Shown here piece by piece: positions 34,740-53,751 of a DNA stretch of 64,000 nucleotides; positions within the stretch are counted from its first letter, which is position 1; each line of letters starts with the position of its first letter. The position numbers were made by a program, and so were the translations under genes. This stretch comes from Escherichia coli (GTDB lineage: Bacteria > Pseudomonadota > Gammaproteobacteria > Enterobacterales > Enterobacteriaceae): the NCBI RefSeq assembly GCF_024700885.2, contig NZ_CP117016.1. One strand, 5' to 3'. The notes beneath the pieces were generated by a model, which saw only the letters and a program-made list of their open reading frames with translations, was not told where the DNA came from and searched no databases.

Positions 34740-36107
34740 TCACTTCATGTCCCCTTGCGTCAAAACCCAGTAACGACTCACCAGCTCGACAAGACCATTT
34801 TCCACCTTTTTTTGCTGCTGTTCACTGCTATTCTGGTTACGAACTTCATCATAGCGACGTAACTGCTCTTCTGCCGGGATATGCCGGTTAAAAGCCTGCA
34901 TGATGCCAAACACCTCCGTTTTCAGTTCACTGACCGTCATGTATTTTCCCCGCTGCTCATCCAGACGGTTCAGGCGCTCAGCCAGCTGCTGTAAGCGGGT
35001 CATGCCTTCGTTCCAGCCCGCCATCGCCTCTTCCGGGAGCGCACGACTCCTTACACTCTTCTGCCAGTTATCCACCATTTCCTGAACACGGGGATTGTCG
35101 GGAAAAAGTACCCTCAGTTGCTGCAGCAGCTGCGCACTGCGTTGCAGGTTGTATGCCGGGGGTAGTTCTGCCAGTCGTGTTATCTGCTGACCGGAAAGGG
35201 TTATCCACTCTGACGCATGATTTAGCAGTGAAGGTGTTCTGCTGAGCTGTGTCATCTGGCCTGCTGAAAGCACATCCGGTGGTGGTGTCAGCAACGCCCT
35301 GAGTTGCTGCTCCGCCGGTGATGGCTGTGTCAGAAACTGCCATCCCGGAATGGCCACGCTGACCGCCAGCAATGCCGCACAGACACCAGTTACAAACGGT
35401 TTCAGAAACGTGGGCGGGGATTTCTGAAGGGAATGTGTGTTTTCTTTTCCGCTCTCTGCTTTTGTTTCAGAAACAACATACACCAGACGGGAGTGCGGCA
35501 GGGTCTGATGTTCCTGTACGTCCGGAGCATCAGACCGGAGTGCCTGCGCCGGAAGGGTTACCGGAGACGATACTTCACCCTGCACAGGCTGGTTCTCCAG
35601 GCGGGTGATATATCCCTTCACCATGGCTTCCGGTAAAGCCACTTTACTGCTCTGTTTAAGTTCGTGCCGGGCCAGTGTGTCACTCAGTGCCTTCAGGAAT
35701 GTTTCGGTCTGATACAGCAGGGGCAGGTTGTCACGGTCGTCCGGAGGCATGGCCCGAAGCGTTTTTTGCAGATGGTTGAACAGACCGGTAATAATTTCCA
35801 GCCGGGCGTGGGTATTCAGCGGCCACATCACTGACCAGTGATGCCGGGTCAGCGCCACAATCAGAGCCAGCCCTTCATTCAGACCACTTAACCCTGTTGT
35901 ATGCATCCGGGCGATGGTGTACCAGGATGCCGTCTGTAATTCCACGCCATTGTGTTCATACAGACGCAGGCAGAGTGTTTCCACGTAACGCCAGTCCACA
36001 TCCGGGCGTGCCGGGTGAGTCAGTTTGCTGATTTCATCGCGCAGGGCAGCATAATCCGGTAATGACCGGGGGTCACCACCGGTTTTCAGTTTCACTTCAG
36101 AAGTCAT
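34740..36107 (-). CDS. ImpA-N-domain membrane protein, VasL-like T6SS accessory protein
   Basis: 455 aa; ImpA-N-like N-terminus (DPRSLPDYAALRDEISKL...NGVELQTASWY...GLNEGLALIVAL) and a central TM helix (VTGVCAALLAVSVAIPGW). Confidence 0.6.
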   Translation of the reverse strand: MTSEVKLKTGGDPRSLPDYAALRDEISKLTHPARPDVDWRYVETLCLRLYEHNGVELQTASWYTIARMHTTGLSGLNEGLALIVALTRHHWSVMWPLNTHARLEIITGLFNHLQKTLRAMPPDDRDNLPLLYQTETFLKALSDTLARHELKQSSKVALPEAMVKGYITRLENQPVQGEVSSPVTLPAQALRSDAPDVQEHQTLPHSRLVYVVSETKAESGKENTHSLQKSPPTFLKPFVTGVCAALLAVSVAIPGWQFLTQPSPAEQQLRALLTPPPDVLSAGQMTQLSRTPSLLNHASEWITLSGQQITRLAELPPAYNLQRSAQLLQQLRVLFPDNPRVQEMVDNWQKSVRSRALPEEAMAGWNEGMTRLQQLAERLNRLDEQRGKYMTVSELKTEVFGIMQAFNRHIPAEEQLRRYDEVRNQNSSEQQQKKVENGLVELVSRYWVLTQGDMK

Positions 36108-36531: not shown

Positions 36532-38319
<1,788 letters not shown>

Positions 38320-38512
38320 AAACGCACCTTAATCTGTGAACAAAAAAATAATCACCACCGACATCCACGGATGTTATATCGTGGGTATCGCTTTATTCAG
38401 AAATAAAAAACAGAATCATTAACATGACCAGAATACTGTGAACCATGCTGCAGGGTATCTGCAGATATCCCTTCTGTTATATCCGGCCGGGGTAAAATCA
38501 GAACACTGACTG

Positions 38513-39757
38513 TCAGGCAGCTTCATTTTCCGCGTATTCCAGACTCTGCAGGTACTGCAGCGCCGCCGGGTCAGCCACATATTCCACCTGCCCGTGGTGA
38601 CGCTCCACTTCATTAATGATTTTCTCAAGCTTCACGCGGAAAAATTCTTTACGCAGGTTAATCCTGTTAATGCGGTATTTTTCCAGACTGTCATGAAGTG
38701 TTTTTTCCAGCGCAGGCGCATCATCACAGGAAATCATGGCGTGAACATCAAAATCAAACGGAACAGAAGCACCACTTAACTCTTTGACCCTGTCCATGGG
38801 TTCCAGCCGTCGGGTCATGCCAATTTTAAAGACATCCTCACCAAACGAACCAATATTCGAAATGATATAAACATGCCCCTGTTTCGTAAGCTGAGCCATG
38901 GATTTAGCACGTTCATACTGCGCATGCGCTTCCTGAATTTTCTGTTCCAGCTCCAGGCGTTGTTTCTCTAACTCCTCCCTGTGAGCCCCTTCTGCTGCGC
39001 GCAGCGCCTCCTCAATCAGTTTCTGCTGCTCAGCAAGACGCCGTTCTTCCTCTTCCGCTTCCCGCTGGCGCCGTTCAGGTTCATCCTGACGCTCTTTTTC
39101 TTCACGCATCTGACGCTTAAGCTCTGCCTGATATTCCTTCTCTTCCTGCGCTTTTTCCAGCAATGCCACTTTGTCCAGAAACTGTTGCCTGATACTCTCC
39201 CGGTCAGAATTATCTTCCAGGTTAAGAAAGGCTATTTTCTCACTGACAGCAGCGTAAGCCTCTCTTTCCTTACGAAGCTGGTCATATTTGCTTTGCCAGT
39301 TATTAATCGTTACACCAGCCAGCAGAGTCTTCGCCTTAAATTTCCAGGCGGAATCAACAATCCGTTGCATTGCACGGCTGGCCTTCTGTCTGGCGGTATG
39401 AAATTCCTCACGACGTCTGGCCAGTTGCTCCTTTTCCTGTCGTATTCCCCGGGCTATCGCGGCATTGACAGTTTCATTAAAACCCCGCTCTCTCTGAACC
39501 AGCTCTGAAACGGCCTGCTCAAAGGCTGCTGTTTTCTTTCTGAGTCTCCGGTAAATAAAAAAACGAAGTAAAATTGCAAATACAGTAAGCAAACCAAAAA
39601 ACAAACCAATAATACCTGCCGGATTCGATACTGCATCAATAAAGCGCTCATTAAGATTTATCAGCGCCCTGACCGCCACATAAATCCCCCAGAGAATAAC
39701 GCAAACTAAAATCAGGACAAATCCCGCTGCATTATCATCTTTTTTTCCTCCTGCCAT
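38513..39757 (-). CDS. Membrane-anchored coiled-coil protein with C-terminal T5orf172/MUG113-type GIY-YIG domain
   Basis: 414 aa; two N-terminal TM helices, about 200 aa of charged heptad-rich coiled coil, then GHVYIISNIGSFGEDVFKIGMTRRLEPMDRVKEL...EFFRV, typical of T5orf172 domains. Confidence 0.7.
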   Translation of the reverse strand: MAGGKKDDNAAGFVLILVCVILWGIYVAVRALINLNERFIDAVSNPAGIIGLFFGLLTVFAILLRFFIYRRLRKKTAAFEQAVSELVQRERGFNETVNAAIARGIRQEKEQLARRREEFHTARQKASRAMQRIVDSAWKFKAKTLLAGVTINNWQSKYDQLRKEREAYAAVSEKIAFLNLEDNSDRESIRQQFLDKVALLEKAQEEKEYQAELKRQMREEKERQDEPERRQREAEEEERRLAEQQKLIEEALRAAEGAHREELEKQRLELEQKIQEAHAQYERAKSMAQLTKQGHVYIISNIGSFGEDVFKIGMTRRLEPMDRVKELSGASVPFDFDVHAMISCDDAPALEKTLHDSLEKYRINRINLRKEFFRVKLEKIINEVERHHGQVEYVADPAALQYLQSLEYAENEAA

Positions 39758-39912: not shown

Positions 39913-40326
39913 TTAATACTGATTACCGGAACAAATGGGCAGATGCGTAAATCCGGGTTTGCTGGCCATATAAAGCGGCGCACAGGTAGGGTTGCGGGGT
40001 TCAGTGACCGGCACAGCCTCATTTTTCTCAGCCACCGACGGTTGTGACACCTTCCGGACAGCCGCTGATTTTTCCTTCTGAACCGGCTTCGTGGTGACCG
40101 GTGATTTCACCTGACGTTTGCCGGGTGCCACGCCATAACCAGAACAAAGGCGCTTCGACTGACTCAGACTTCCGTCATTGCAGACAAAACGTCCGTCTGA
40201 CGTACAGTGTGAAATACCACCTTTAGCACCCGAGCAGGGTTTTCTTCCCCGCGCAGCATCTGCCTGAACCGAAAATAAAAGCCCCACGAACAGAAAAAAG
40301 ATAATTTTCTTCATTTTAAAACTCAT
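39913..40326 (-). CDS. Small secreted Cys-containing protein (137 aa)
   Basis: Signal peptide MKKIIFFLFVGLLFSVQADA; several Cys in the mature part; no family recognised. Confidence 0.45.
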   Translation of the reverse strand: MSFKMKKIIFFLFVGLLFSVQADAARGRKPCSGAKGGISHCTSDGRFVCNDGSLSQSKRLCSGYGVAPGKRQVKSPVTTKPVQKEKSAAVRKVSQPSVAEKNEAVPVTEPRNPTCAPLYMASKPGFTHLPICSGNQY

Positions 40327-41441: not shown

Positions 41442-42522
41442 TTTCCTGAGTCTCCTTACGTTGATAATGTTCCTGAACCCGCTGATAACGCCCCAGACTG
41501 ATGGTCATGACGCGTGCCGCTGAAGTCGCTATCTTTGCCTGTGTTCTCATTACTGCCGTGCGCCCCAGTTGCGGACTACCGGCTGCCGGTCGGCAACTGA
41601 GCCGGGCATCCGGTAACAGTGAACGCTCAACACAAAGTTGCAGACGTACATCCAGACGGCTTCCCAGATAAACATGCAACAACGCCAACAAATCAGAATA
41701 CAGATGCCCGCCTGGTAACCAGCCCTGTACCTCGCTGCCCGTCTGTGTTGAAAGCTGTAATAACACCTGTCCGTTCACATCCGTGGCATGATCGCCCATC
41801 ACCGGGCGACTCTTCAGACTGACCGGTTGATGAACACGCATGGTCAGCGGTGTTTTCAGCGGGATCCGTCGTCGGTCATGATGCCAGACACGGGCCTGTG
41901 TTCCGGGAGCCAGCAGCGTTACCAGTGATGTCAGCCCTTCAGCTGTTCTTCCGGGTAACAACATCAGGGGCAATAACGCCAGAAAACGCGATACCGGCGT
42001 GGCAATATTCTGTGCACATCCGGGGATCCCCAGTCTGGCCAGACCGAGCAGATACTGGGATGTTTTATCCTGTCCTCCCGCCTCAAAGGTGGCCGGGTAC
42101 GAATATTTACGCCAGATACGGTAATACTGGGTGATCAGACGATGACTGAATATATCGAGAAAATCCGCTGCGGCCTCATGGCCTTCCCGCTGCTGTGCAA
42201 TATCACTGATATAGTGTGCCGGCAACGGAGACGTGACCCCGTAAAGTCCCATAAACGTCACATGTACAATGGGTGGCAGATGGGATTCTTCAGGAATTAC
42301 AGCGTCTTTTATTTCACTCGCAGGAAACCCCATTCCCGGGTATGGACAAAAGCGAACCGCTTCCTGACGGGCCTGCCAGCCACTGCCAATGGGAGGCTGG
42401 TCTGGCTGGCTTTGTTCCAGCAACTGACAGAAGCGGTAAAAATTAATATACGGAAGCTGTTTCCGGTAACGGGTAATTAACCGGGCAGGCGCGGATTGTG
42501 ATTTTCTTTCCACCGGATGCAT
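41422..42522 (-). CDS. tssG: T6SS baseplate subunit TssG
   Basis: 366 aa; position between tssF and tssJ. Confidence 0.8.
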   Translation of the reverse strand: MHPVERKSQSAPARLITRYRKQLPYINFYRFCQLLEQSQPDQPPIGSGWQARQEAVRFCPYPGMGFPASEIKDAVIPEESHLPPIVHVTFMGLYGVTSPLPAHYISDIAQQREGHEAAADFLDIFSHRLITQYYRIWRKYSYPATFEAGGQDKTSQYLLGLARLGIPGCAQNIATPVSRFLALLPLMLLPGRTAEGLTSLVTLLAPGTQARVWHHDRRRIPLKTPLTMRVHQPVSLKSRPVMGDHATDVNGQVLLQLSTQTGSEVQGWLPGGHLYSDLLALLHVYLGSRLDVRLQLCVERSLLPDARLSCRPAAGSPQLGRTAVMRTQAKIATSAARVMTISLGRYQRVQEHYQRKETQENGDYRW

Positions 42523-44240
42523 TTTCCTTCAGGCTGAACAATCAGTGTGAGCTGATTGAACTGATTCATATCGGCGTACAGGGCCAGGAAACGGTTGAGC
42601 ATTTCGCCAAACAGGTGAATATCTCCCTCTCCGGCAAACCCGTTGCCATCAAGAGTTACCTCCACATCAAGCCCCCGGAGCAGAAAACCCTTTTCAAAAC
42701 GCTGAATACGATGATGCTGTACAGCCAGAATGGCATCAAGCCGACGGTGATTAAGTTCATCGTCCCGCCAGTTATAAAGCGCCAGCGTGCCACGCAGCAC
42801 TTCCGCACTGCTCAGCATGTTAAGAAATCCTGTCCCCAGATGACTCATCACCCGCCAGTGAAAACGATCTTCTGTCGGCGGATAAACCGGTAGCGTGGGT
42901 TTACAAAGATTACGTACACTGACCGGGGCCTGCAGTACCTGTTCACACCGATCAAGCAGCGTACTCTGCAACGCACGACGGGGAAGCTGACCATTGGTAC
43001 CTGTAATACGTAATGAAAGCGTTTCCCGCTCCGGCATCCGATCCGCCTCCCACCGCTGACCGCCAAGGATAAGCCATGTGTCATACATCCCCGTGACACC
43101 CCGCTTCACCCGGGTATGATAATAACGTTCGGGTGCATCATGGCGCAGCATTCCCCCACGGTGACGGAAGCTGGTAAAAGGCACGTACTCTGCACTGCCG
43201 GTCCGCCCGGAGCCCGTCACCGCATCCACTGAATATATCTCCGTATACCCATCCTGCAGACGCTTCGGGCGCAGCAGGTATTCGCTCTCCAGCCCATTGA
43301 TGATGAGTGGATCGGCTTCAAGCGTAAAAAGGTTAATCACCGGCACACAATGCAGACACAGGGCATCGTCTGTCACAGGTAAATCTGCTGGCCAGGGCTG
43401 ACTCAGCACCACCTCAAGATCGAATCCGGAAATACCTGCCGGCAGAGAAACATTCTCCAGTCCGTTCAGATGAACAAACATAAACTTTTCCCGAAAGGTG
43501 AAATATTCCAGCAATAACTGATACCCACTGAAAGCACTGTCACCTTTCGGCCACAGCCGATCTTCTTCTGCAAAACCACCGGGTGAAAACCATCCGTCAA
43601 TGCGGATCCGCTCATCATTTCCCGGCAGCCTCAGATACAGCGCAGCCAGACGCTTTGTCATCATCAGATGAAGGGTGCTGCTGACCGGGGCTTCTGCTGC
43701 CAGATACAGGCTCAGACGATGCAAATCGACCTGAGACCAGTCAGCCAGTTCACTGCAGGCAAAACCTATTTTCAACACTGAACGCCCGTCCGGCTCCGTC
43801 GTCATAACAACCTTCTCCACTGCCAGTGGATTCAGTGGTATGGCCCGGGTGGTACGGTAACGACAGACTGTATTTCCGGGGCCAACAGGGCGGGAAGTCA
43901 CTTCCAGTCCGGCTGGTACGGTTTCAGCCATTTTCATGACGGATAACCGGGGAGTCAGTGCCACCACCGACAGGGACGGGATAGTACGCAGATAATGAGG
44001 CCAGAGCATACTGACCAGACTTTCAGTAAGCTCCGGCAAATCATCGTCGATTTTCTGGCGCAGTCGTCCCATGGAAAAGGCGAAACCTTCAAACAGGCGT
44101 TCCACGCAGGGATCAGGCGTACCCGCTTTATCGAGATCCAGCATCGCCGCCCGATCGGGATGAGCCTGTGCAAACGCCTTTCCGGCTTCACGCAGATAAC
44201 GCATTTCAGCGTCAAAATAACGCAGGGTTAAATCGTCCAT
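42477..44240 (-). CDS. tssF: T6SS baseplate subunit TssF
   Basis: 587 aa; N-terminus LRYFDAEMRYLREAGKAFAQAHPDRAAML...PDPCVERLFEGFAF. Confidence 0.85.
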   Translation of the reverse strand: MDDLTLRYFDAEMRYLREAGKAFAQAHPDRAAMLDLDKAGTPDPCVERLFEGFAFSMGRLRQKIDDDLPELTESLVSMLWPHYLRTIPSLSVVALTPRLSVMKMAETVPAGLEVTSRPVGPGNTVCRYRTTRAIPLNPLAVEKVVMTTEPDGRSVLKIGFACSELADWSQVDLHRLSLYLAAEAPVSSTLHLMMTKRLAALYLRLPGNDERIRIDGWFSPGGFAEEDRLWPKGDSAFSGYQLLLEYFTFREKFMFVHLNGLENVSLPAGISGFDLEVVLSQPWPADLPVTDDALCLHCVPVINLFTLEADPLIINGLESEYLLRPKRLQDGYTEIYSVDAVTGSGRTGSAEYVPFTSFRHRGGMLRHDAPERYYHTRVKRGVTGMYDTWLILGGQRWEADRMPERETLSLRITGTNGQLPRRALQSTLLDRCEQVLQAPVSVRNLCKPTLPVYPPTEDRFHWRVMSHLGTGFLNMLSSAEVLRGTLALYNWRDDELNHRRLDAILAVQHHRIQRFEKGFLLRGLDVEVTLDGNGFAGEGDIHLFGEMLNRFLALYADMNQFNQLTLIVQPEGKCIRWKENHNPRLPG

Positions 44241-44247
44241 TATCTTC

Positions 44248-44940
44248 TCAGAATAAAGCTAACTGTTCCGGAGACTCGCGCTCTGACTTCAGCCATGCCT
44301 CAAACAATCGCCCGAACTGAACGGCAAGCCGGATTTCATTAATCAGATTACATGTGAATATAACTGTCAGAAATATCATGATAAAATAAACGAGAGAAAA
44401 TAACATAAATAAAACTGTATTACTCCCCGACAGAAATGGCATGGTTGTAAGTATCCCTCCCGTAAACTGAACACATAAAGAAAACACCGAAAACACTGCT
44501 ATCATCCAGTAACTTTTATGCACACGACGAGTATTAACAGTAAATTTGCCATCTAAAAATATACCGACAAAAGAATATTTAAGAAAACAATGCAGTCTGT
44601 TATCCACTGAGCTGATATTTCTGTCGGATATAAAACAAATCAGCTTATTACAACACCACGTCGGGAGATATATCCCCATCTGTTCATAACAGTATTTTAT
44701 TCTTACCAGTGTATTTTTCGTTGCTGGTTCTTTTGTCAGTTTGTCAATACGGGCAAGAATGGACTCCTTTTCAGATACAGGAATTTTTTCAAATCTGTAT
44801 TTCCTGATATTCGGCGCATAGCCATAATGCTGCACAAACCATTTGACAAGAGGAATAATAATGCCCGACAGAAGCGGTAACACCAGATTTTTGACTATAT
44901 CCTGAAATGTTTTGTCCTGAAGATAATGCATGACAGACAT
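44248..44940 (-). CDS. AT-rich membrane protein of unknown function inserted between tssA and tssF
   Basis: About 230 aa from MSVMHYLQDK; C-terminal TM helices (YWMIAVFSVFSLCVQF..., VLFMLFSLVYFIMIFLTVIF); start overlaps the tssA stop and the stop lies 7 nt before the tssF start; composition is much more AT-rich than its neighbours. Confidence 0.45.
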   Translation of the reverse strand: MSVMHYLQDKTFQDIVKNLVLPLLSGIIIPLVKWFVQHYGYAPNIRKYRFEKIPVSEKESILARIDKLTKEPATKNTLVRIKYCYEQMGIYLPTWCCNKLICFISDRNISSVDNRLHCFLKYSFVGIFLDGKFTVNTRRVHKSYWMIAVFSVFSLCVQFTGGILTTMPFLSGSNTVLFMLFSLVYFIMIFLTVIFTCNLINEIRLAVQFGRLFEAWLKSERESPEQLALF

Positions 44941-44941
44941 C

Positions 44942-46540
44942 TCATGAACTTCCCGAATTGCACAACACAGCAGCTCTGGCAGCATCAATGGCGATGAGCC
45001 CGGCAAGAAGATGTTCCATATCAGGCTGCAGACGCACCCTGTCACTTTCAGTTTTTGCGGACTTCATACGCAACAGTTTCAGGCGGCGGGCTTTTACCTC
45101 AAATACCAGTTCAGGTTCCCATTGTGACAGGGTCAGCCGGGTTGCACGTTCATCCAGCTCCGCAAGCAGGTGCAGGGCAAGGTCATTTTTTCCTGTCTGT
45201 TCGGCAACACGGGCCATCAACAGGCGCAGTAGCCAGTTGCTGCGGTCAGACTGAATACCGGGACGTGCCTGTAACCAGCTTAAAGCGGCTTCTGTTCCTT
45301 CATTATCCGCAATCTGCAGGGCTTCCGGCTCAAGAGATAAAATGTCGTTATCTCCGGGAGCTGCCGTTATCGTTACAGAAGGTTCTTCCGCCCAGCGTTC
45401 ACCACACTCCATCACCTGCTGCTGTATCCAGCTCAGCGTCACGTCATCGGCAAACGGCATGCCGTCGTTAAAAGCCAGTGTCTCAAGCCCCGGCAGGCGC
45501 AGAAGCAATCCTTTCAGGTCATACTGAATAATGGCAGCATAATTTTCTTTTCCGGTCTGCAACAGCGCCTGATGAATATACCACTGCAGGTCCAGCCACA
45601 GATGACTGGCTCCCCGGGCAAACATATCGTCACACTGTTCAAGCAGTGACAACCAGTTCTGCTGCAGATACAACCGTTTCAGTGACGCACGCCGGTCCGG
45701 CCCCGGTGGGGCAATACGGGTCCGTCCATCAGCAGATAACGGCGGTAACTGATGCAGCGTGTCATGCCGGACGCTTTTCATCAGTCGATGAGCCGCCAGC
45801 CAGCCCTCAGGCTGGTCACGCAGATATTTTGCCAGAACACGGGCCTGTGACAGCAGTTCCTGTCCGGAGGTGATGGCAGATAATGCCATGACGCTGCCGG
45901 ATGTTACCGTCGGTGCCGGCGCGGCAGCCTCCTGAGGCACCACTGCATCAACACCACCGGCCTTCATCAGGCGATTTTCAAGTGCCTGATATAACCCGTT
46001 CAGCACCGGGGCGGAAGCCTCATCCGTAAAGGTCTGTTCTGCCAGCCACAGCGCCCCGGCAATGCGCAGGGTATCCGCCTTCACCACCTCCGGATACAGA
46101 GACAGACTGTCCAGTATGCGGGCGCTGCATAACCACTCCAGCGCCGCCTTCCTGGCCCGTGACCGTTGTGGATGCAGGTGCTCTCCAAAACGCTGCAACA
46201 AACCGGTCAGCAGCTCCAGACCGTCGGCCAGACCTTTTTCACCATCCTGCCGCAGACGGGCCCAGATATACCAGGTCGCCACCCGGATATCTTTGGTTCT
46301 GGTGGTCAGTAATTTTTCTGCAAGCTGGCTGACAATTCCGGCATCGGCTCCGGAGAGTTTATTGACCTCTTCACGCATCTGCTGAAAATCATCATCGTAC
46401 CCCGCATCATCACCTGCGGGATTATCTGGCGTCACGGGAGCAAGCCATTTATCCCACAGCGCAATACGCACCTGAGCCGGTTCAGCCACATCCCGGGGTG
46501 TCGTCTGGCATGCGCTGAGGAGCGAATGAATGGAAGCCAT
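44942..46540 (-). CDS. tssA: T6SS protein TssA (ImpA N-terminal domain)
   Basis: 532 aa; ImpA-N motif PDNPAGDDAGYDDDFQQMREEV...KDIRVATWYIWARL. Confidence 0.8.
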   Translation of the reverse strand: MASIHSLLSACQTTPRDVAEPAQVRIALWDKWLAPVTPDNPAGDDAGYDDDFQQMREEVNKLSGADAGIVSQLAEKLLTTRTKDIRVATWYIWARLRQDGEKGLADGLELLTGLLQRFGEHLHPQRSRARKAALEWLCSARILDSLSLYPEVVKADTLRIAGALWLAEQTFTDEASAPVLNGLYQALENRLMKAGGVDAVVPQEAAAPAPTVTSGSVMALSAITSGQELLSQARVLAKYLRDQPEGWLAAHRLMKSVRHDTLHQLPPLSADGRTRIAPPGPDRRASLKRLYLQQNWLSLLEQCDDMFARGASHLWLDLQWYIHQALLQTGKENYAAIIQYDLKGLLLRLPGLETLAFNDGMPFADDVTLSWIQQQVMECGERWAEEPSVTITAAPGDNDILSLEPEALQIADNEGTEAALSWLQARPGIQSDRSNWLLRLLMARVAEQTGKNDLALHLLAELDERATRLTLSQWEPELVFEVKARRLKLLRMKSAKTESDRVRLQPDMEHLLAGLIAIDAARAAVLCNSGSS

Positions 46541-49500: not shown

Positions 49501-49929
49501 CTGCCAGAACTGTTCTGTCAGGCCCGGGGTCAACAACTCAACCTCAGAGGCGGTACCTGTTATCAACAGAATGCGTATCTTACGTCCCCAGAATCTGCCA
49601 TACTGGCGCCGCAGAGTATGACGAATATCCTGAACAGTAACATAGCGCGGTGGCGTCTGAGCCAATCGCTCTTCATCGTCAGGTAACCTTTGCTCCTTAC
49701 GGGCCCTGCGTCGATATGTCAGTTCCTGAACATATTTTTTCATCACAGGCAGGTAACAGACAAAGAGCACCCCCAGACTCAGCAATATCAGCAGTAGTAT
49801 TTGATCCCGGCGTGTTTCTGCCCCCAGATATGCTCCATATCGGGTTATCAGCCACCAGAGCGCAGCCACACCAATAAATACAATCCCCGGTCGCCCAAAG
49901 CGACCAGACAGACAGGCCAGTTTATTCAT
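46540..49929 (-). CDS. tssM: T6SS membrane-complex subunit TssM (IcmF-like)
   Basis: 1129 aa; N-terminal TM helices; IcmF-like size and context. Confidence 0.85.
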   Translation of the reverse strand: MNKLACLSGRFGRPGIVFIGVAALWWLITRYGAYLGAETRRDQILLLILLSLGVLFVCYLPVMKKYVQELTYRRRARKEQRLPDDEERLAQTPPRYVTVQDIRHTLRRQYGRFWGRKIRILLITGTASEVELLTPGLTEQFWQEEQGTLLLWGGDPSQPENADWLAALRRLRYRPADGIVWVTSGLSETLSAPLTEDALDRVSRAVSSCCERLGWRLPLYVWSLQESPDERGRITQPVGCLLPAECSSDKLKAQLQAMLPGLVAQGIQQICCAPRYYFLLSLAERFRRNIDAVVEPLSVLLRPYRQLLLAGIVFSPATVGGERSVRHRWRMDNRWEALPETVQQLPVRLQPSRTGHNWRRSLAVMAAILMMAQGTGMVVSFLANRSLVAEVQEQIRPAQNQQLSPAERLQALLNLQKSLARLQYREEHGAPWYLRAGMNQNADLLAVVMPLYAQNAHLLLRDAAAAHLEQQLRTFIRLPPDSPQRGKMAKPAYDQLRLYLMLAQPQHMEPAWFSRTLMREWPQRDGVSAVFWQANGPTLLAYYASGIITHPQWKLTADEELVSQSRTLLLRHLGTQNSDAMLYQKMLARVAHQFADMRLTDMTGDTDVSRLFFTDEVVPGMFTRQAWEEAVLPSIDTVINERREEMDWVLTDGRQKAPSPVSPEALRQRLTTRYFADFGNAWLNFLNSLHLRKAQTLSDVTEQLTLMADVRQSPLVALMNTLAVQGCTGQPREAVTDSLVKSARNLLSQEKQPVAVPESRLHGPLATTFGPVLALMDNQNNSADMLNLQTYLTRVTQVRLRLQQIAGSSDPQAMMQLLAQTVLQGKSVDLTDTRDYGSLTAAGLGQEWYGFGQTVFVRPMEQAWQQVLTPAAESLNARWRTAVVDGWNNAFSGRYPFKNVSSDASLPLLAKYLNTDTGRIARFLQNNLSGVLHREGSRWVPDTINTRGLTFNPAFLKAINTLSEIADVAFTTGNAGLHFELRPGTAAGVMQTTLITDNQKLIYVNQMPVWKRFTWPADTEAPGASLSWVSTQAGTRQYADLPGSWGLIRLLEMARRKAAPGVASGWSLSWQAQDGRMLNYTLRTEAGEGPLVLLKLRNFVLPETVFELSGTSAFTGNDEDAGDTVEETD

Positions 49930-51070
49930 TCTGGTTTCCTGATGTAACAGTACTGATAAAATGTTCTTCTCCGGATGAGAATAAAGTCAGGAGAGAATCA
50001 TTACCAAGACAGACCAGATCGGCTGCCAGAGCAGTAAGCAGCCACGGAGCAGCAGGTCCCGGGATACCGCACCATTTTTCCAGTAACATACGTCCGGACG
50101 GTTCCCATCCGGCACCATACTGGTTTCCAATAGTCATCAGCGGTGCAGCAATCTTTTCCCAGTGATAACAGTCTCCCAGTACACGAGCGGTACGACAGGC
50201 TGCTGTCTGGGTTTCAAGGAAAAGTGTGAATTCATCATTAAACTTGTTGATATCCAGCGACATCGGGCGTAGCAGACGGGCTGAATGCGACAGATTATAT
50301 TTTTGCGCAACATCATCGCTGGTCAACAAAAGTGCAGCCAGTCCGTCAGAGTATGTATTTCCCCCATTAAGCTGTATTACCAGTATCAAATCCACAGTCA
50401 GCACTGGTTGTTTCAGACGCTCATCAACCCACCCCATGGAAAAGTCAGGAGTAACCTCGATATTGTCAGGAACGACGCGTTGGGGAAATAACGCTTCCCA
50501 TGCAGAAACAAAAGCAGATCTGATTTCAGAATCAGGCTGATCGGTTATCAGCGTCACATTTACAGGGAGAGCGGCAGGTAACTGACAAAATTTATCCGTT
50601 ATCTCCCTAAGCAAGACACGTAAAGAGGCTTCAACCTTATGCCCACTGTCAGAAAGATAATCTATTTTCTTTACAAGGCCGTACTGCAGAGGCAATTCAT
50701 CACAAAGAGTAGCTACCGTTATTTTATCAGGCAAATAAACACAACTGGCAGTAATAACAAGATACCTTTCGGCCCAGGATTCCCACTGTTTCTGAGCATA
50801 CTCCCCCTCTTTTTTAAGAAACAAATGTTCATCCATCTGGTTGCTCCACTGCCAGTGTCGCAGGCAAAACAGGAAAAACCAGCACCCCGGAGGAGTCAAT
50901 GCAAGCCACCAGATACTGAAATTATTTAATGCTTTCACATATTCTGATGCCCGGATAATAAACAACAGAGCACCAACAACAGCCATAAATGCCCCTGTCA
51001 TAAACCACAACATCATTGATGGTTTATGAGGTAATTCTGTTGATAATGATTTTGTTCTGCTCCATCCCAT
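49922..51070 (-). CDS. Hypothetical membrane protein (382 aa), T6SS-linked
   Basis: Two N-terminal TM helices followed by a soluble domain; translationally coupled between PAAR and tssM. Confidence 0.45.
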   Translation of the reverse strand: MGWSRTKSLSTELPHKPSMMLWFMTGAFMAVVGALLFIIRASEYVKALNNFSIWWLALTPPGCWFFLFCLRHWQWSNQMDEHLFLKKEGEYAQKQWESWAERYLVITASCVYLPDKITVATLCDELPLQYGLVKKIDYLSDSGHKVEASLRVLLREITDKFCQLPAALPVNVTLITDQPDSEIRSAFVSAWEALFPQRVVPDNIEVTPDFSMGWVDERLKQPVLTVDLILVIQLNGGNTYSDGLAALLLTSDDVAQKYNLSHSARLLRPMSLDINKFNDEFTLFLETQTAACRTARVLGDCYHWEKIAAPLMTIGNQYGAGWEPSGRMLLEKWCGIPGPAAPWLLTALAADLVCLGNDSLLTLFSSGEEHFISTVTSGNQNE

Positions 51071-51371: not shown

Positions 51372-52049
51372 TCACCAGTTGCCGTAGGGATAAATTTTCC
51401 CTTTGATAAAATCTGGTGTATCACCGTAATAAACATATCCATCTGGATGTTTAGTAACCCCCTTACACATCTTCATTTTATCACCCGATACTGTAGTAAT
51501 TTTAGCATCCAACTGAGGTACCACCGGATTACCGCGATCTCCCAGCCAGACTCTTACCTTCCCTTCAGGAGCCAGACCAATAATCATCGTTGAACGATAA
51601 TAGGTTTCGTTCCAGCGGTTGTCTGCGTAAGGCGTAACCATCTGCTCCCAGGTCCCTTTTTTAAAAAAAATCAGAGTTTCATAACTCTTTTTATCAATTA
51701 TTGAATCCCAGCAAAAACGCAACATCAGGGGTAATGCTTTCCCCTTGTTATAATACGACTCAGTCGCGCCCAGATGGTCATTCCAGCGCCCTACACTGAC
51801 CTGACTCGGCTCGGTATTATCAAGATACTGATAAGTCGTCTTATAACCTTCCCCGTCCACCATCAACGCCTGGGTGGCCAGCGCAGGCAGAGCCTTTGGA
51901 TAAATAAAGAGAAATTTCCATTCATCATAGGGTAATTTTTTATAACCCCATTCAGTCTTATCCAAATCAGCATACCGTGAGCTAACCGAATTACACCCAG
52001 TTAACAATGCCAATAATGGTGCGATAAAAATGATTTTATCTCTGGTCAT
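51372..52049 (-). CDS. tli1: Lipoprotein, candidate Tli1-type immunity protein for the adjacent phospholipase
   Basis: 225 aa; signal peptide with lipobox (LLTGC); immediately downstream of the DUF2235 effector gene. Confidence 0.55.
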   Translation of the reverse strand: MTRDKIIFIAPLLALLTGCNSVSSRYADLDKTEWGYKKLPYDEWKFLFIYPKALPALATQALMVDGEGYKTTYQYLDNTEPSQVSVGRWNDHLGATESYYNKGKALPLMLRFCWDSIIDKKSYETLIFFKKGTWEQMVTPYADNRWNETYYRSTMIIGLAPEGKVRVWLGDRGNPVVPQLDAKITTVSGDKMKMCKGVTKHPDGYVYYGDTPDFIKGKIYPYGNW

Positions 52050-52068
52050 GTATTGTCATCCTGTAGCG

Positions 52069-53751
52069 TTAAACACCAGACATCATAACTTTAGTATTTT
52101 TTACTGCGTTATCATTCAATCGCTGCTGATCATCCATGTACCATACAGAACGAATCCAGCGATCATTTGGTTTATTCGGAAAAACGAACGCCTTATTACC
52201 TTTAGGACCAAAGCGATGGATAAAAATCTCTCCCGTTGTAGGATCCACCCATAAATTACCATCAGACTCAATATTCCAGTTAGCGGAACAATGGGTGTAT
52301 TTTCCGATAATATACAACTCTTCCTCAGTAAAAGCCTGAGGCTCTTGCCCCAAACGTACCGCTTTTCCCTGAGCAATGGCTTTGTCAGCAAGAAATATTA
52401 GTTCAGATGGAAGTTGTAACTCAGTATTTGTTTGTCGAATTGGTTCAAACAATACCCCTGCTTCCTGAGCAGCATCCAGCATCACACGCAGGCAAACATT
52501 AGCCCAGTCATTAGGTACTGCCATACGCTCAAAAAATACTGCGGCTCCCACCTGCTTTTGTATCACACCAGCCCGACGTTGATTGCTGTTGTTCACACCT
52601 ATGGAACGAATTTTGGTGGTTAGTTTTCCATGAGGCAAAATATGTTTTAAGGCTGGCAGAGTCATCAACATTTTTCTGACTTGCTCTGCTTTACGGTATA
52701 CTCGCGTATCCATTTCTCTGGTATCGTCACTGACAATTTCAAATTCCGGGCAACTCAGAAACAGACTTTCATTTTCCTGCAGAGGTGAACCTACCGGATT
52801 GTAACCACCTCCAATATCTGAATGCGCCCCCGGTAAAGCCAGTTCGGGCCACATACCTTTAATACTGTTCAGGCTGAAATTATATCGGTATTCATTCATT
52901 GCAGTAATCTGGAAAACTTTCTTCGCGACTGAAGGACGCAACTCCAGCTTTACTCCCGGGTTGCTACGTCCATTAATATCGAAGAAATTACTGATTCCAC
53001 CAATAGCTGCGACAGTATCAAAAAGCCCCAGAAAACGTACTTCACCAGAAGGTTTACCATCATAAAAATCGCCTCTGAGCCCTTTAGCAATAGCTCTGGC
53101 TATAGCAGGATCCTGTTCCATAACCCGATTGGCAAAGTGCCTTGCCGCCGCTGCTCCCCGGCTAAAACCAAAAACATCAAACTGGATTTTTGCGATACAA
53201 AAATCAGGACTTAAATTGAACCCCATAAATTCTGATAACGCCTGGGTGATTCGTTCCATTGCCTCGTCGGTTTTCGTCACCACACCTTCAAATATATCCA
53301 GAATACTGGTGCCTAATCCCATGCCTATGACTGAATCTGCTTCACCAGCCGCAGTCCCTATCCCGGAAATGTAAGTCTTAATTTGAGCTGACGTCTGGTC
53401 TTTTTTAAGTACCTGATCTGGATGATAGAGTATATTAAGCCAGTGAATATTGGAATAATATCCACGATAACTGCCATTCGAGATACTGTTCTTGTTAATT
53501 TCTTTAAGAAAGTCCTCACAGCTTTGTGCATCTTTTTGATTTACCCCCTGTCTGGCTGCACTACACTCATTAAATTTCATCAGGCGAGATGCTGTATTCT
53601 CCCGATTGTTTCCGGTACCATCGAAAAATATGCCAATAGTTAAAGTCACACCCCGCGCCGGTTTTTTCTTTGCAACAACAACTTTCCAGTCATTATGAAT
53701 ACTGGTTTTATGGGTGGCATCTGTTACGTCATATCCCTGATATTTTGTCAT
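52069..53751 (-). CDS. tle1: Tle1-family T6SS phospholipase effector (DUF2235)
   Basis: 560 aa; DUF2235 signature IGIFFDGTGNN and lipase GxSxG motif (GFSRG); start overlaps the vgrG stop. Confidence 0.75.
   Translation of the reverse strand: MTKYQGYDVTDATHKTSIHNDWKVVVAKKKPARGVTLTIGIFFDGTGNNRENTASRLMKFNECSAARQGVNQKDAQSCEDFLKEINKNSISNGSYRGYYSNIHWLNILYHPDQVLKKDQTSAQIKTYISGIGTAAGEADSVIGMGLGTSILDIFEGVVTKTDEAMERITQALSEFMGFNLSPDFCIAKIQFDVFGFSRGAAAARHFANRVMEQDPAIARAIAKGLRGDFYDGKPSGEVRFLGLFDTVAAIGGISNFFDINGRSNPGVKLELRPSVAKKVFQITAMNEYRYNFSLNSIKGMWPELALPGAHSDIGGGYNPVGSPLQENESLFLSCPEFEIVSDDTREMDTRVYRKAEQVRKMLMTLPALKHILPHGKLTTKIRSIGVNNSNQRRAGVIQKQVGAAVFFERMAVPNDWANVCLRVMLDAAQEAGVLFEPIRQTNTELQLPSELIFLADKAIAQGKAVRLGQEPQAFTEEELYIIGKYTHCSANWNIESDGNLWVDPTTGEIFIHRFGPKGNKAFVFPNKPNDRWIRSVWYMDDQQRLNDNAVKNTKVMMSGV

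Follow-up and report, generated by a model that had tools for sequence, protein, structure and literature searches.

An AT-rich, polymorphic gene between tssA and tssF of the Escherichia coli 042 sci-1 type VI secretion operon encodes a member of an undescribed family of putative inner-membrane proteins

Why does a gene of markedly low GC content sit inside a GC-rich type VI secretion system (T6SS) core operon, and does its composition mark it as a recent arrival? The question is raised by a stretch of 64,000 nucleotides (the window) that represents the pheU-island region of enteroaggregative Escherichia coli (EAEC) 042 (NC_017626.1) and carries the sci-1 T6SS on its minus strand. Between tssA and tssF of the sci-1 core operon lies the AT-rich gene that we call X (Table 1), annotated in RefSeq as 'hypothetical protein' (EC042_RS24255 / WP_000115357.1). 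EAEC sci-1 is the reference system for T6SS membrane-complex, baseplate and TssA biology, and X, in its core operon, was absent from our literature search and from family databases. Since TssA has the published locus tag EC042_4540 and TssF is EC042_4542 (PMC4604203), the older locus tag of X should be, and presumably is, EC042_4541, of which the literature search found no mention. An earlier note on the window had read the gene as a horizontally acquired insert. Our comparisons across genomes show instead that low GC is a trait of the whole X family and that X, in the simplest reading, is an old resident of its slot that was later lost in some lineages; it represents an undescribed protein family and, most conservatively, a T6SS-associated accessory or cargo gene.

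The compositional contrast itself is as the earlier note had reported. In 300-nt windows the GC content is 0.33-0.40 over X versus 0.51-0.61 in the flanks, and the whole gene has a GC of 0.374 and a GC at third codon positions (GC3) of 0.385, compared with 0.51-0.56 and 0.52-0.57, respectively, in tssM, tssA, tssF, tssG, tssJ and tssE. The first 450 nt of tssM, which encode transmembrane (TM) helices, have a GC of 0.516, and because third codon positions of X are also low, the gap goes beyond an effect of amino-acid composition. X is a real coding gene, as its frame is kept in alleles and distant homologues, its ratio of nonsynonymous to synonymous substitution rates (dN/dS) is 0.38-0.68, and strong Shine-Dalgarno sequences precede its start in orthologous loci; in 042 the corresponding sequence is a Shine-Dalgarno-like GGGAAG. 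Coupling had been claimed on both sides. Downstream this held, with 7 nt between the X stop and the tssF start, but upstream the start of X does not overlap the tssA stop, from which it is separated by a 1-nt spacer (TGA-G-ATG). Outside E. coli, the X stop and the tssF ATG overlap or directly adjoin each other (overlap in L007 and L023, ATGGATGA; TAAATG in L012), and the tssF Shine-Dalgarno sequence is weak in 042.

How far the family extends depended on the search. A word-indexed homologue search returned E. coli alleles of X only and, taken alone, would wrongly suggest an ORFan, whereas an exhaustive HMMER profile search of 1.84 billion representatives recovered a family of 27 proteins of 200-273 aa that are 18-37% identical. 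Judged by source names and structure-database matches, the family is confined to Enterobacterales, with members in Salmonella, Cedecea, Enterobacter, Klebsiella, Raoultella, Citrobacter, Kluyvera, Hafnia, Serratia, Pantoea, Tatumella and Photorhabdus. The earlier note's statement that the protein has no recognisable motif was borne out by Pfam, NCBIfam, PADLOC and PHROGs, in which X had no match and up to 32 family members gave noise only; hits among PDB sequences came only from transmembrane composition. None of the T6SS core-component models (TIGR/NCBIfam/Pfam) matched X at E-values up to 1 (NCBIfam, Pfam), and its neighbours score 1e-108 (TssA) and 1e-165 (TssF).

Homologues of X were found in the same slot in other genera. 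The order tssM-tssA-X-tssF-tssG-tssJ-tssE recurs in Salmonella Concord, Cedecea neteri and Enterobacter sp., as in E. coli, and the order PAAR-h380-tssM-X-tssF-tssG-tssJ, in which tssM is followed at once by X, in Serratia fonticola, Enterobacteriaceae LUAb1 and one metagenome contig. In every such T6SS locus the X homologue lies 15-20 GC points under its neighbours (0.37-0.45 versus 0.55-0.64), and a core-chromosome copy in S. marcescens has kept the low GC, less strongly. TssF in these X-bearing loci of other genera is 77-81% or 50-53% identical to that of 042, and TssF of the X-less Nissle-type E. coli T6SS-1, at 67%, falls in between. Low GC is thus a family trait, and the step from composition to a recent horizontal insert fails; low GC inside an operon is by itself no evidence of recent transfer. 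The earlier note had proposed a presence-absence survey of this kind, and had named as the counter-case to its own view homologues of similar composition that are universally present at this position and have a described structural role. Homologues proved to be common there but not universal, being absent from the Nissle type and replaced in the G5 type, and no structural role has been described for them.

Several candidate relationships were rejected. Neither TssA nor the extra C-terminal TM helices of the 477-aa post-PAAR protein of Nissle-type loci is homologous to X (hhalign probability <1% in both cases), and Salmonella pathogenicity island 6 (SPI-6) sciA as an equivalent of X was supported neither by the exhaustive search nor by the literature search. 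One metagenome contig (L011, 1-1483) carries the end of tssM, then about 100 codons of tssA, and then an X family member; it may be a locus with a truncated tssA or an assembly artefact.

Within E. coli, the 042-type sci-1 locus is present in 65 of 5,426 complete genomes, and all 65 loci hold X or its remnant: the gene is full-length in 41, and the other 24 share an identical 568-nt deletion that leaves a 9-codon open reading frame (ORF) and the last ~118 nt before tssF. T6SS-1 loci that are more distant occur in about 1,360 further E. coli genomes. Those of the Nissle type have tssA immediately next to tssF, and those of the G5 type have, in place of X, a PAAR-domain protein and a 140-aa protein. 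In E. coli G5 itself (L004 4609-6441, NZ_CP195935.1), a PAAR-domain protein of ~470 aa (frameshifted here) and the 140-aa hypothetical protein at the tssA-tssF junction are probably an effector-immunity pair. Across these loci the junction behaves as a variable, or cargo, slot. X thus lacks the essentially universal presence expected of a T6SS core component (Nissle and G5 types; 24/65 deletions). The gene can be lost, and the natural deletions show only that cluster integrity does not need it.

X is also the fastest-evolving and most polymorphic gene of the operon. Between 042 and STEC719, TssF is ~100% and X 65% identical; the corresponding values are 94% and 40% between Salmonella Concord (L007) and Cedecea (L012), and 77% and 59% between S. 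fonticola (L020) and LUAb1 (L022). X is under constraint, but weakly so, as its dN/dS within E. coli exceeds the 0.08-0.24 of tssA and the 0.02-0.11 of tssF (Nei-Gojobori). The variation is concentrated in a middle module (codons 96-205), which has a DNA identity of 43-47% between E. coli allele classes within flanks that are 98-100% identical. Allele classes diverge at synonymous sites (dS) by 0.35-0.41 across the whole gene and by 0.67-0.74 across the middle module, compared with 0.02-0.07 in the flanks; the alleles are old and the surrounding frame is young. The segment encoding the first TM helix (TM1) is variable as well, with A and B alleles that reassort among E. coli strains, and TM1 and middle modules are seen in all four combinations, a sign of recombination. 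None of the E. coli alleles differs in the last 25 codons. h382, the second accessory membrane protein of the locus, is 98% identical in strains in which X is 65% identical; hypervariability is therefore specific to X, and h382 was rejected as a co-varying partner of X within E. coli.

The earlier note's membrane protein of about 230 aa was confirmed, with 230 codons and hydrophobic helices. Its C-terminal TM helices are both present (~143-166 and ~176-200), but a third, N-terminal helix (~15-36) had been missed. A model built from 6 close sequences was unusable (predicted local distance difference test, pLDDT, 53), whereas the distant members from the exhaustive search, in a 32-member alignment, gave a confident AlphaFold model (pLDDT 85.6; predicted template modelling score, pTM, 0.74). 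From the N-terminus onwards, the model shows one helix, then a domain of four helices plus a hairpin (~50-136), and then a long helical hairpin (137-171, 175-222) whose end reaches past the membrane. Family-wide, acidic residues prevail in the short N-terminus and basic ones in the 107 aa that separate TM1 from TM2 (17 K/R versus 11 D/E). From the model and this charge distribution (positive-inside rule), X is predicted to be an inner-membrane protein with three TM helices in an N-out/C-in topology, its domain and C-terminal helix being cytoplasmic and its periplasmic exposure almost nil (~15 residues). The best-conserved region of the protein is the putative cytoplasmic domain, with the family motifs RxxRF-x-K, (I/L)KxLYExIG and FL(K/R); the conserved positions F50, I65, Y85, E86, G89, F119, L120 and F209 all lie in predicted cytoplasmic parts, and the TM hairpin and its loop are the least conserved region.

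X family members also occur outside T6SS loci. One stand-alone cluster of at least 90% identity is common to Salmonella, K. pneumoniae, Citrobacter, K. aerogenes and Kluyvera and adjoins an Mrr-like nuclease and a Dpd system, the copies of K. oxytoca and K. grimontii have SymE on one side and type I restriction-modification genes on the other, and S. marcescens and Raoultella have monocistronic copies amid housekeeping genes. No neighbour common to the different stand-alone copies was found, and these copies retain the family motifs. In a rough neighbour-joining tree T6SS-embedded members occupy both deep clades and the island copies are nested within the tssA-X-tssF clade, which suggests that the latter escaped from T6SS loci. 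The family was absent from 50,697 phage records, and on plasmids it was represented by a single deletion remnant, on a large Citrobacter replicon.

What, then, does X do? The shortlist drawn up in the earlier note (orphan immunity protein, assembly regulator or unrelated passenger) remains the right one, and we rank first, as a tentative choice that is possible rather than probable, that X is a non-essential T6SS-associated accessory ('Tag-like') inner-membrane protein. Through translational coupling, X would be produced together with TssA/TssM and TssF; it would use its conserved cytoplasmic face to dock on a conserved cytoplasmic partner, such as the TssM cytoplasmic domain, TssA or the baseplate; and X would thereby modulate the site or efficiency of machine assembly and not be part of the core structure. 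The membrane hairpin would need only to stay in the bilayer, and so would be free to drift and recombine. This reading draws on a position and a tight coupling shared by at least seven lineages, the gene or its remnant in all E. coli loci of the type, T6SS-embedded members in both deep clades with island copies nested in one, conserved parts on the side where TssA, the TssM N-domain and the baseplate reside, independence from effector cassettes across genera, and the confident model. It also draws on the identity of X across loci, which tracks that of TssF (Spearman 0.82), a co-divergence that is coarse evidence as X distances are almost saturated within the tssA-X-tssF clade.

A number of observations weigh against an accessory role. 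The stand-alone copies in defence-type islands and core genomes keep the motifs and in one cluster cross genera, which points to a function independent of T6SS linkage. More than a third of the E. coli loci of this type (24/65) have X inactivated, all core genes are annotated as intact in two X-deletion strains of unrelated backgrounds, and the sister T6SS-1 lineage of the Nissle type has no X, so any role must be subtle. Hypervariability of the degree seen against TssF is atypical for a machine component; the deep dS between allele classes, a dN/dS of 0.4-0.85, the contrast with the nearly invariant h382 and a codon composition similar to that of cargo genes run in the same direction, as does the coarseness of the co-divergence. 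Partner and phenotype are themselves proposals, drawn from sequence and model. X is now a testable candidate, either for an assembly modulator or for a new kind of protection determinant, and knock-outs of tssA or tssF in sci-1 should reckon with the coupled gene between them.

The effector cassette after vgrG varies among otherwise 97-99% identical sci-1 loci (L033 22344-24999; L034 5845-9945; window 51372-53751). It consists of Tle1 with one or two Tli1 proteins in 042 and others, of a 636-aa lipase with a 253-aa protein in seven genomes, or of a 742-aa protein with two FGE-family proteins in STEC005; this last cassette is similar to that of the Salmonella Concord locus. The B-type middle module of X occurs only with the 'lipase family protein' cassette that replaces Tle1/Tli1 (6/6) and the A-type never does, an association that may be plain linkage as the copies are 99.7-100% identical and form one haplotype; the seventh lipase-cassette genome carries the X deletion. 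Across genera X does not follow the variable cassettes: the FGE type pairs with a 042-like X in STEC005 and with a 36%-identical X in Salmonella Concord. In T6SS loci the neighbours of X are always tssA or tssM, and tssF, and no toxin gene adjoins it in ~14 contexts.

These patterns bear on the possibility that X is an immunity-like inner-membrane protein that shields the producer and its kin, or as orphan copies non-producers, from membrane-directed T6SS activity, with the variable TM hairpin setting specificity. We consider this conceivable but doubtful. It would account for the cargo-like GC3 (Tle1 0.364, Tli1 0.434), for a slot that holds a PAAR-toxin and small-protein pair in one T6SS-1 type and is empty in another, for old recombining allele classes with variation concentrated in TM2, loop and TM3, for repeated loss, for single-gene copies in variable islands that have spread between genera, and for the exclusive pairing of B-type modules with the lipase cassette; effectors in X-bearing loci are, moreover, often membrane-targeting (Tle1, lipase, VasX_N). 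However, X never adjoins a toxin gene, Tle1 has its own immunity protein in Tli1, the link to the lipase cassette may be linkage, and the best-conserved parts are predicted to be cytoplasmic, with ~15 residues in the periplasm, where Tle-type lipases act. That X is kept while cassettes differ and does not track them across genera argues against a cognate immunity role. A more specific version, in which X is a polymorphic T6SS-co-expressed inner-membrane determinant whose TM-hairpin alleles are matched to the membrane-targeting cassette of the locus (A with Tle1, B with lipase), is speculative and has a small chance of being right. X would then provide, within the membrane itself, a second layer of self-protection or kin discrimination that is separate from the periplasmic Tli lipoproteins and that non-producers could acquire as an orphan; if true, the best-studied E. 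coli T6SS operon would contain an overlooked T6SS protection gene of a class not recognised before. Rather improbable, too, is an autonomous conflict-system membrane protein that owes its co-expression with the T6SS only to where its gene lies. X would in that case be a single-gene effector of abortive infection, of superinfection exclusion or of the SLATT-like 2TM kind, and would respond to a cytoplasmic cue by perturbing or guarding the inner membrane. A Foldseek match to the SLATT-annotated J2LL14 (E 1.1e-4, TM-score ~0.6) and a second, weaker match, the modelled 2TM hairpin between cytoplasmic helices, and stand-alone copies near SymE and type I restriction-modification genes in Klebsiella and near an Mrr-like nuclease and Dpd in Salmonella are compatible with this reading; X is also hypervariable, AT-rich and horizontally mobile, and the tssE-tagA region of these clusters gathers defence-type genes. 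Yet no SLATT match was obtained for 32 members in Pfam at E up to 0.1, or for 10 divergent members in NCBIfam and PADLOC at E up to 10, and no SMODS, SLOG, reverse-transcriptase or other sensor partner was found in the contexts examined. The near-absence from phage and plasmid records also speaks against it, and a passenger would not be expected to stay coupled in a single slot when the loci have TssF proteins of only 50% identity.

Two further explanations place less weight on the protein or on its role in the locus. The primary role of X might lie at the DNA or RNA level, as an AT-rich H-NS nucleation site or as a coupling spacer that tunes tssF-G-J-E, with the protein secondary. Low GC is indeed conserved in every T6SS context, the deletion allele always retains the last ~118 nt before tssF, a segment that is 100% conserved among alleles, and the tssF Shine-Dalgarno sequence is weak in 042; but the frame, the protein motifs and dN/dS <1 are maintained family-wide, including in monocistronic copies, and the C-terminal motif is conserved as protein even where no tssF lies downstream. 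A promoter and terminator scan of X was at background level (4 found versus 2.4 +/- 1.7 expected), by which an internal promoter or terminator was rejected. We regard such a role as quite unlikely. Least credible, and largely refuted by the synteny survey, is the view that X came in recently by horizontal transfer as a passenger and plays no part in the locus. The deviant composition, the narrow distribution in the word-indexed search and the absence of X from Nissle-type loci can be cited for it, whereas orthologues in the same slot of other genera share this GC deficit, no E. coli locus of the type is without the gene or its remnant, purifying selection is detectable, and family motifs are conserved at 18-35% identity.

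A comparison with known systems shows where X fits and where it does not. It is a non-core gene whose position is conserved in T6SS clusters of several genera, which places it in the Tag category in the sense of Shalom et al. 2007, as used in PMC7614798. TagV offers a precedent, as an unnamed ORF in a core T6SS operon that later proved to be an accessory factor (PMC7614798); as a relative of X it was rejected, being an outer-membrane SH3b lipoprotein. Like the Tag proteins (TagL and TagA of EAEC sci-1, TagV of Serratia marcescens), X is embedded in and co-transcribed with core genes, lineage-restricted, positionally conserved across genera and predicted to lie in the envelope, and other functional T6SS lineages do without it. 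It has no sequence or fold relationship to them, however, lacking the OmpA-type peptidoglycan-binding domain of TagL, the ImpA_N and VasL domains of TagA (which is separately present at 34740-36107) and the SH3b lipoprotein fold of TagV, and it is far more variable within species and has stand-alone copies outside T6SS loci.

Tli1 is the immunity protein for Tle1, and inner-membrane immunity proteins serve pore-forming effectors such as VasX. With T6SS immunity and orphan-immunity genes X shares AT-rich, cargo-like composition, hypervariable old alleles that recombine, losability and orphan-like island copies, as well as a slot that in another E. coli T6SS-1 type holds what is probably a toxin-immunity pair; unlike them, it is never beside a toxin, is kept across differing cassettes, and has a conserved face that is predicted to be cytoplasmic with minimal periplasmic exposure. 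IdsE of Proteus mirabilis, encoded in the T6SS-linked ids operon, is a polymorphic self-recognition membrane partner of the co-varying, T6SS-delivered IdsD. By description X resembles it, as a putative inner-membrane protein encoded with T6SS genes whose allelic variation is concentrated in a membrane-associated segment while the rest is conserved, but in place of a co-varying partner like IdsD there is only the lipase effector cassette, which co-varies with X alleles possibly through linkage. SLATT, the SMODS and SLOG-associating 2TM effector domain, was reportedly described by Burroughs and colleagues in 2015 in nucleotide-signalling conflict systems; its likeness to X lies in a helical 2TM hairpin between cytoplasmic helices and in the defence islands that hold some stand-alone copies.

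Table 1 Features of gene X and of its neighbours in the window.
Feature	Position	Strand	Basis and remarks
Gene X	44248..44940	-	ATG 44940, stop TGA 44250-44248; 230 codons; ORF, translation, annotation, family by profile search
tssA (EC042_4540), upstream neighbour of X	44942..46540	-	TIGR03362 E 1.9e-108; annotation; locus tag
tssF (EC042_4542), downstream neighbour of X	42477..44240	-	TIGR03359 E 1e-165; locus tag
Junction of tssA stop and X start	44938..44944	-	TGA-G-ATG, tssA stop 44944-44942, 1-nt spacer; from sequence
Junction of X stop and tssF start	44238..44250	-	TGA + 7 nt + ATG (tssF ATG 44240)
Putative TM1, N-terminal hydrophobic helix (codons 15-36)	44833..44898	-	Hydropathy; AlphaFold helix 10-38; allele sequences
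Predicted basic cytoplasmic domain (codons 46-136; four helices and beta-hairpin)	44533..44805	-	Alignments, AlphaFold pLDDT >90, column entropy, positive-inside counts
Predicted TM2, ~9-10-residue periplasmic loop and TM3 (codons 143-200)	44341..44514	-	AlphaFold model, hydropathy, column entropy, positive-inside counts
Predicted C-terminal cytoplasmic helix (codons 201-230)	44251..44340	-	Family-wide F-x3-F-x2-WL motif; alignments, alleles
Hypervariable middle module of X (codons 96-205)	44326..44655	-	Sliding identity; Nei-Gojobori estimates
Segment absent from the deletion allele of X	44366..44933	-	568 nt, out of frame; 24/65 sci-1 loci
h382, unannotated AT-rich membrane protein	49922..51070	-	382 aa, GC3 0.41, two N-terminal TM helices

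The gene for h382 lies directly after that for PAAR, its end overlaps the tssM start, and the block PAAR-h382-tssM-(tssA)-X-tssF is conserved. Its position is kept in every X-bearing locus, with 37-39% identity between genera; searches against Pfam and NCBIfam gave no match, and it is weakly related to the 477-aa protein of Nissle-type loci. h382 thus looks like a second uncharacterised conserved component of the X-bearing T6SS clade.

Other genes of the window were noted in passing. TagA is intact as a continuous 455-aa ORF (window 34740-36107, minus strand) with ImpA_N (8-109) and VasL (306-449), and GC falls from ~0.55 to ~0.39 along the gene; in the RefSeq/PGAP annotation of 042, and of all other E. 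coli examined, this ORF is given as three 'incomplete' pseudogene fragments, a split that is probably an annotation artefact. The stretch from tssE to tagA and just beyond holds defence-type genes that differ by locus (window 36532-39757, minus strand; L012 11780-13606; L023 11074-14723; L033 43183-46001): a GIY-YIG nuclease and a 3'-5' exonuclease in 042, a NERD/UvrD helicase in Cedecea, a KAP NTPase with QatB/QueC in a metagenome locus, a type II Zorya just beyond in STEC719, and none in TUM13754. The end of the X-bearing T6SS cluster accordingly looks like a defence-gene hotspot. Just downstream of tssE, a 137-aa ORF (window 39913-40326, minus strand) with a signal-peptide-like N-terminus and a cysteine-rich region has matches to the PRK10040 'hypothetical protein' below cut-offs and is present in 042 and STEC719, not in TUM13754. 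A second cluster of large ORFs at window ~7000-25400 (minus strand) is uniformly AT-rich (GC 0.34-0.44) and presumably corresponds to the sci-2/aai T6SS known from the 042 pheU island.

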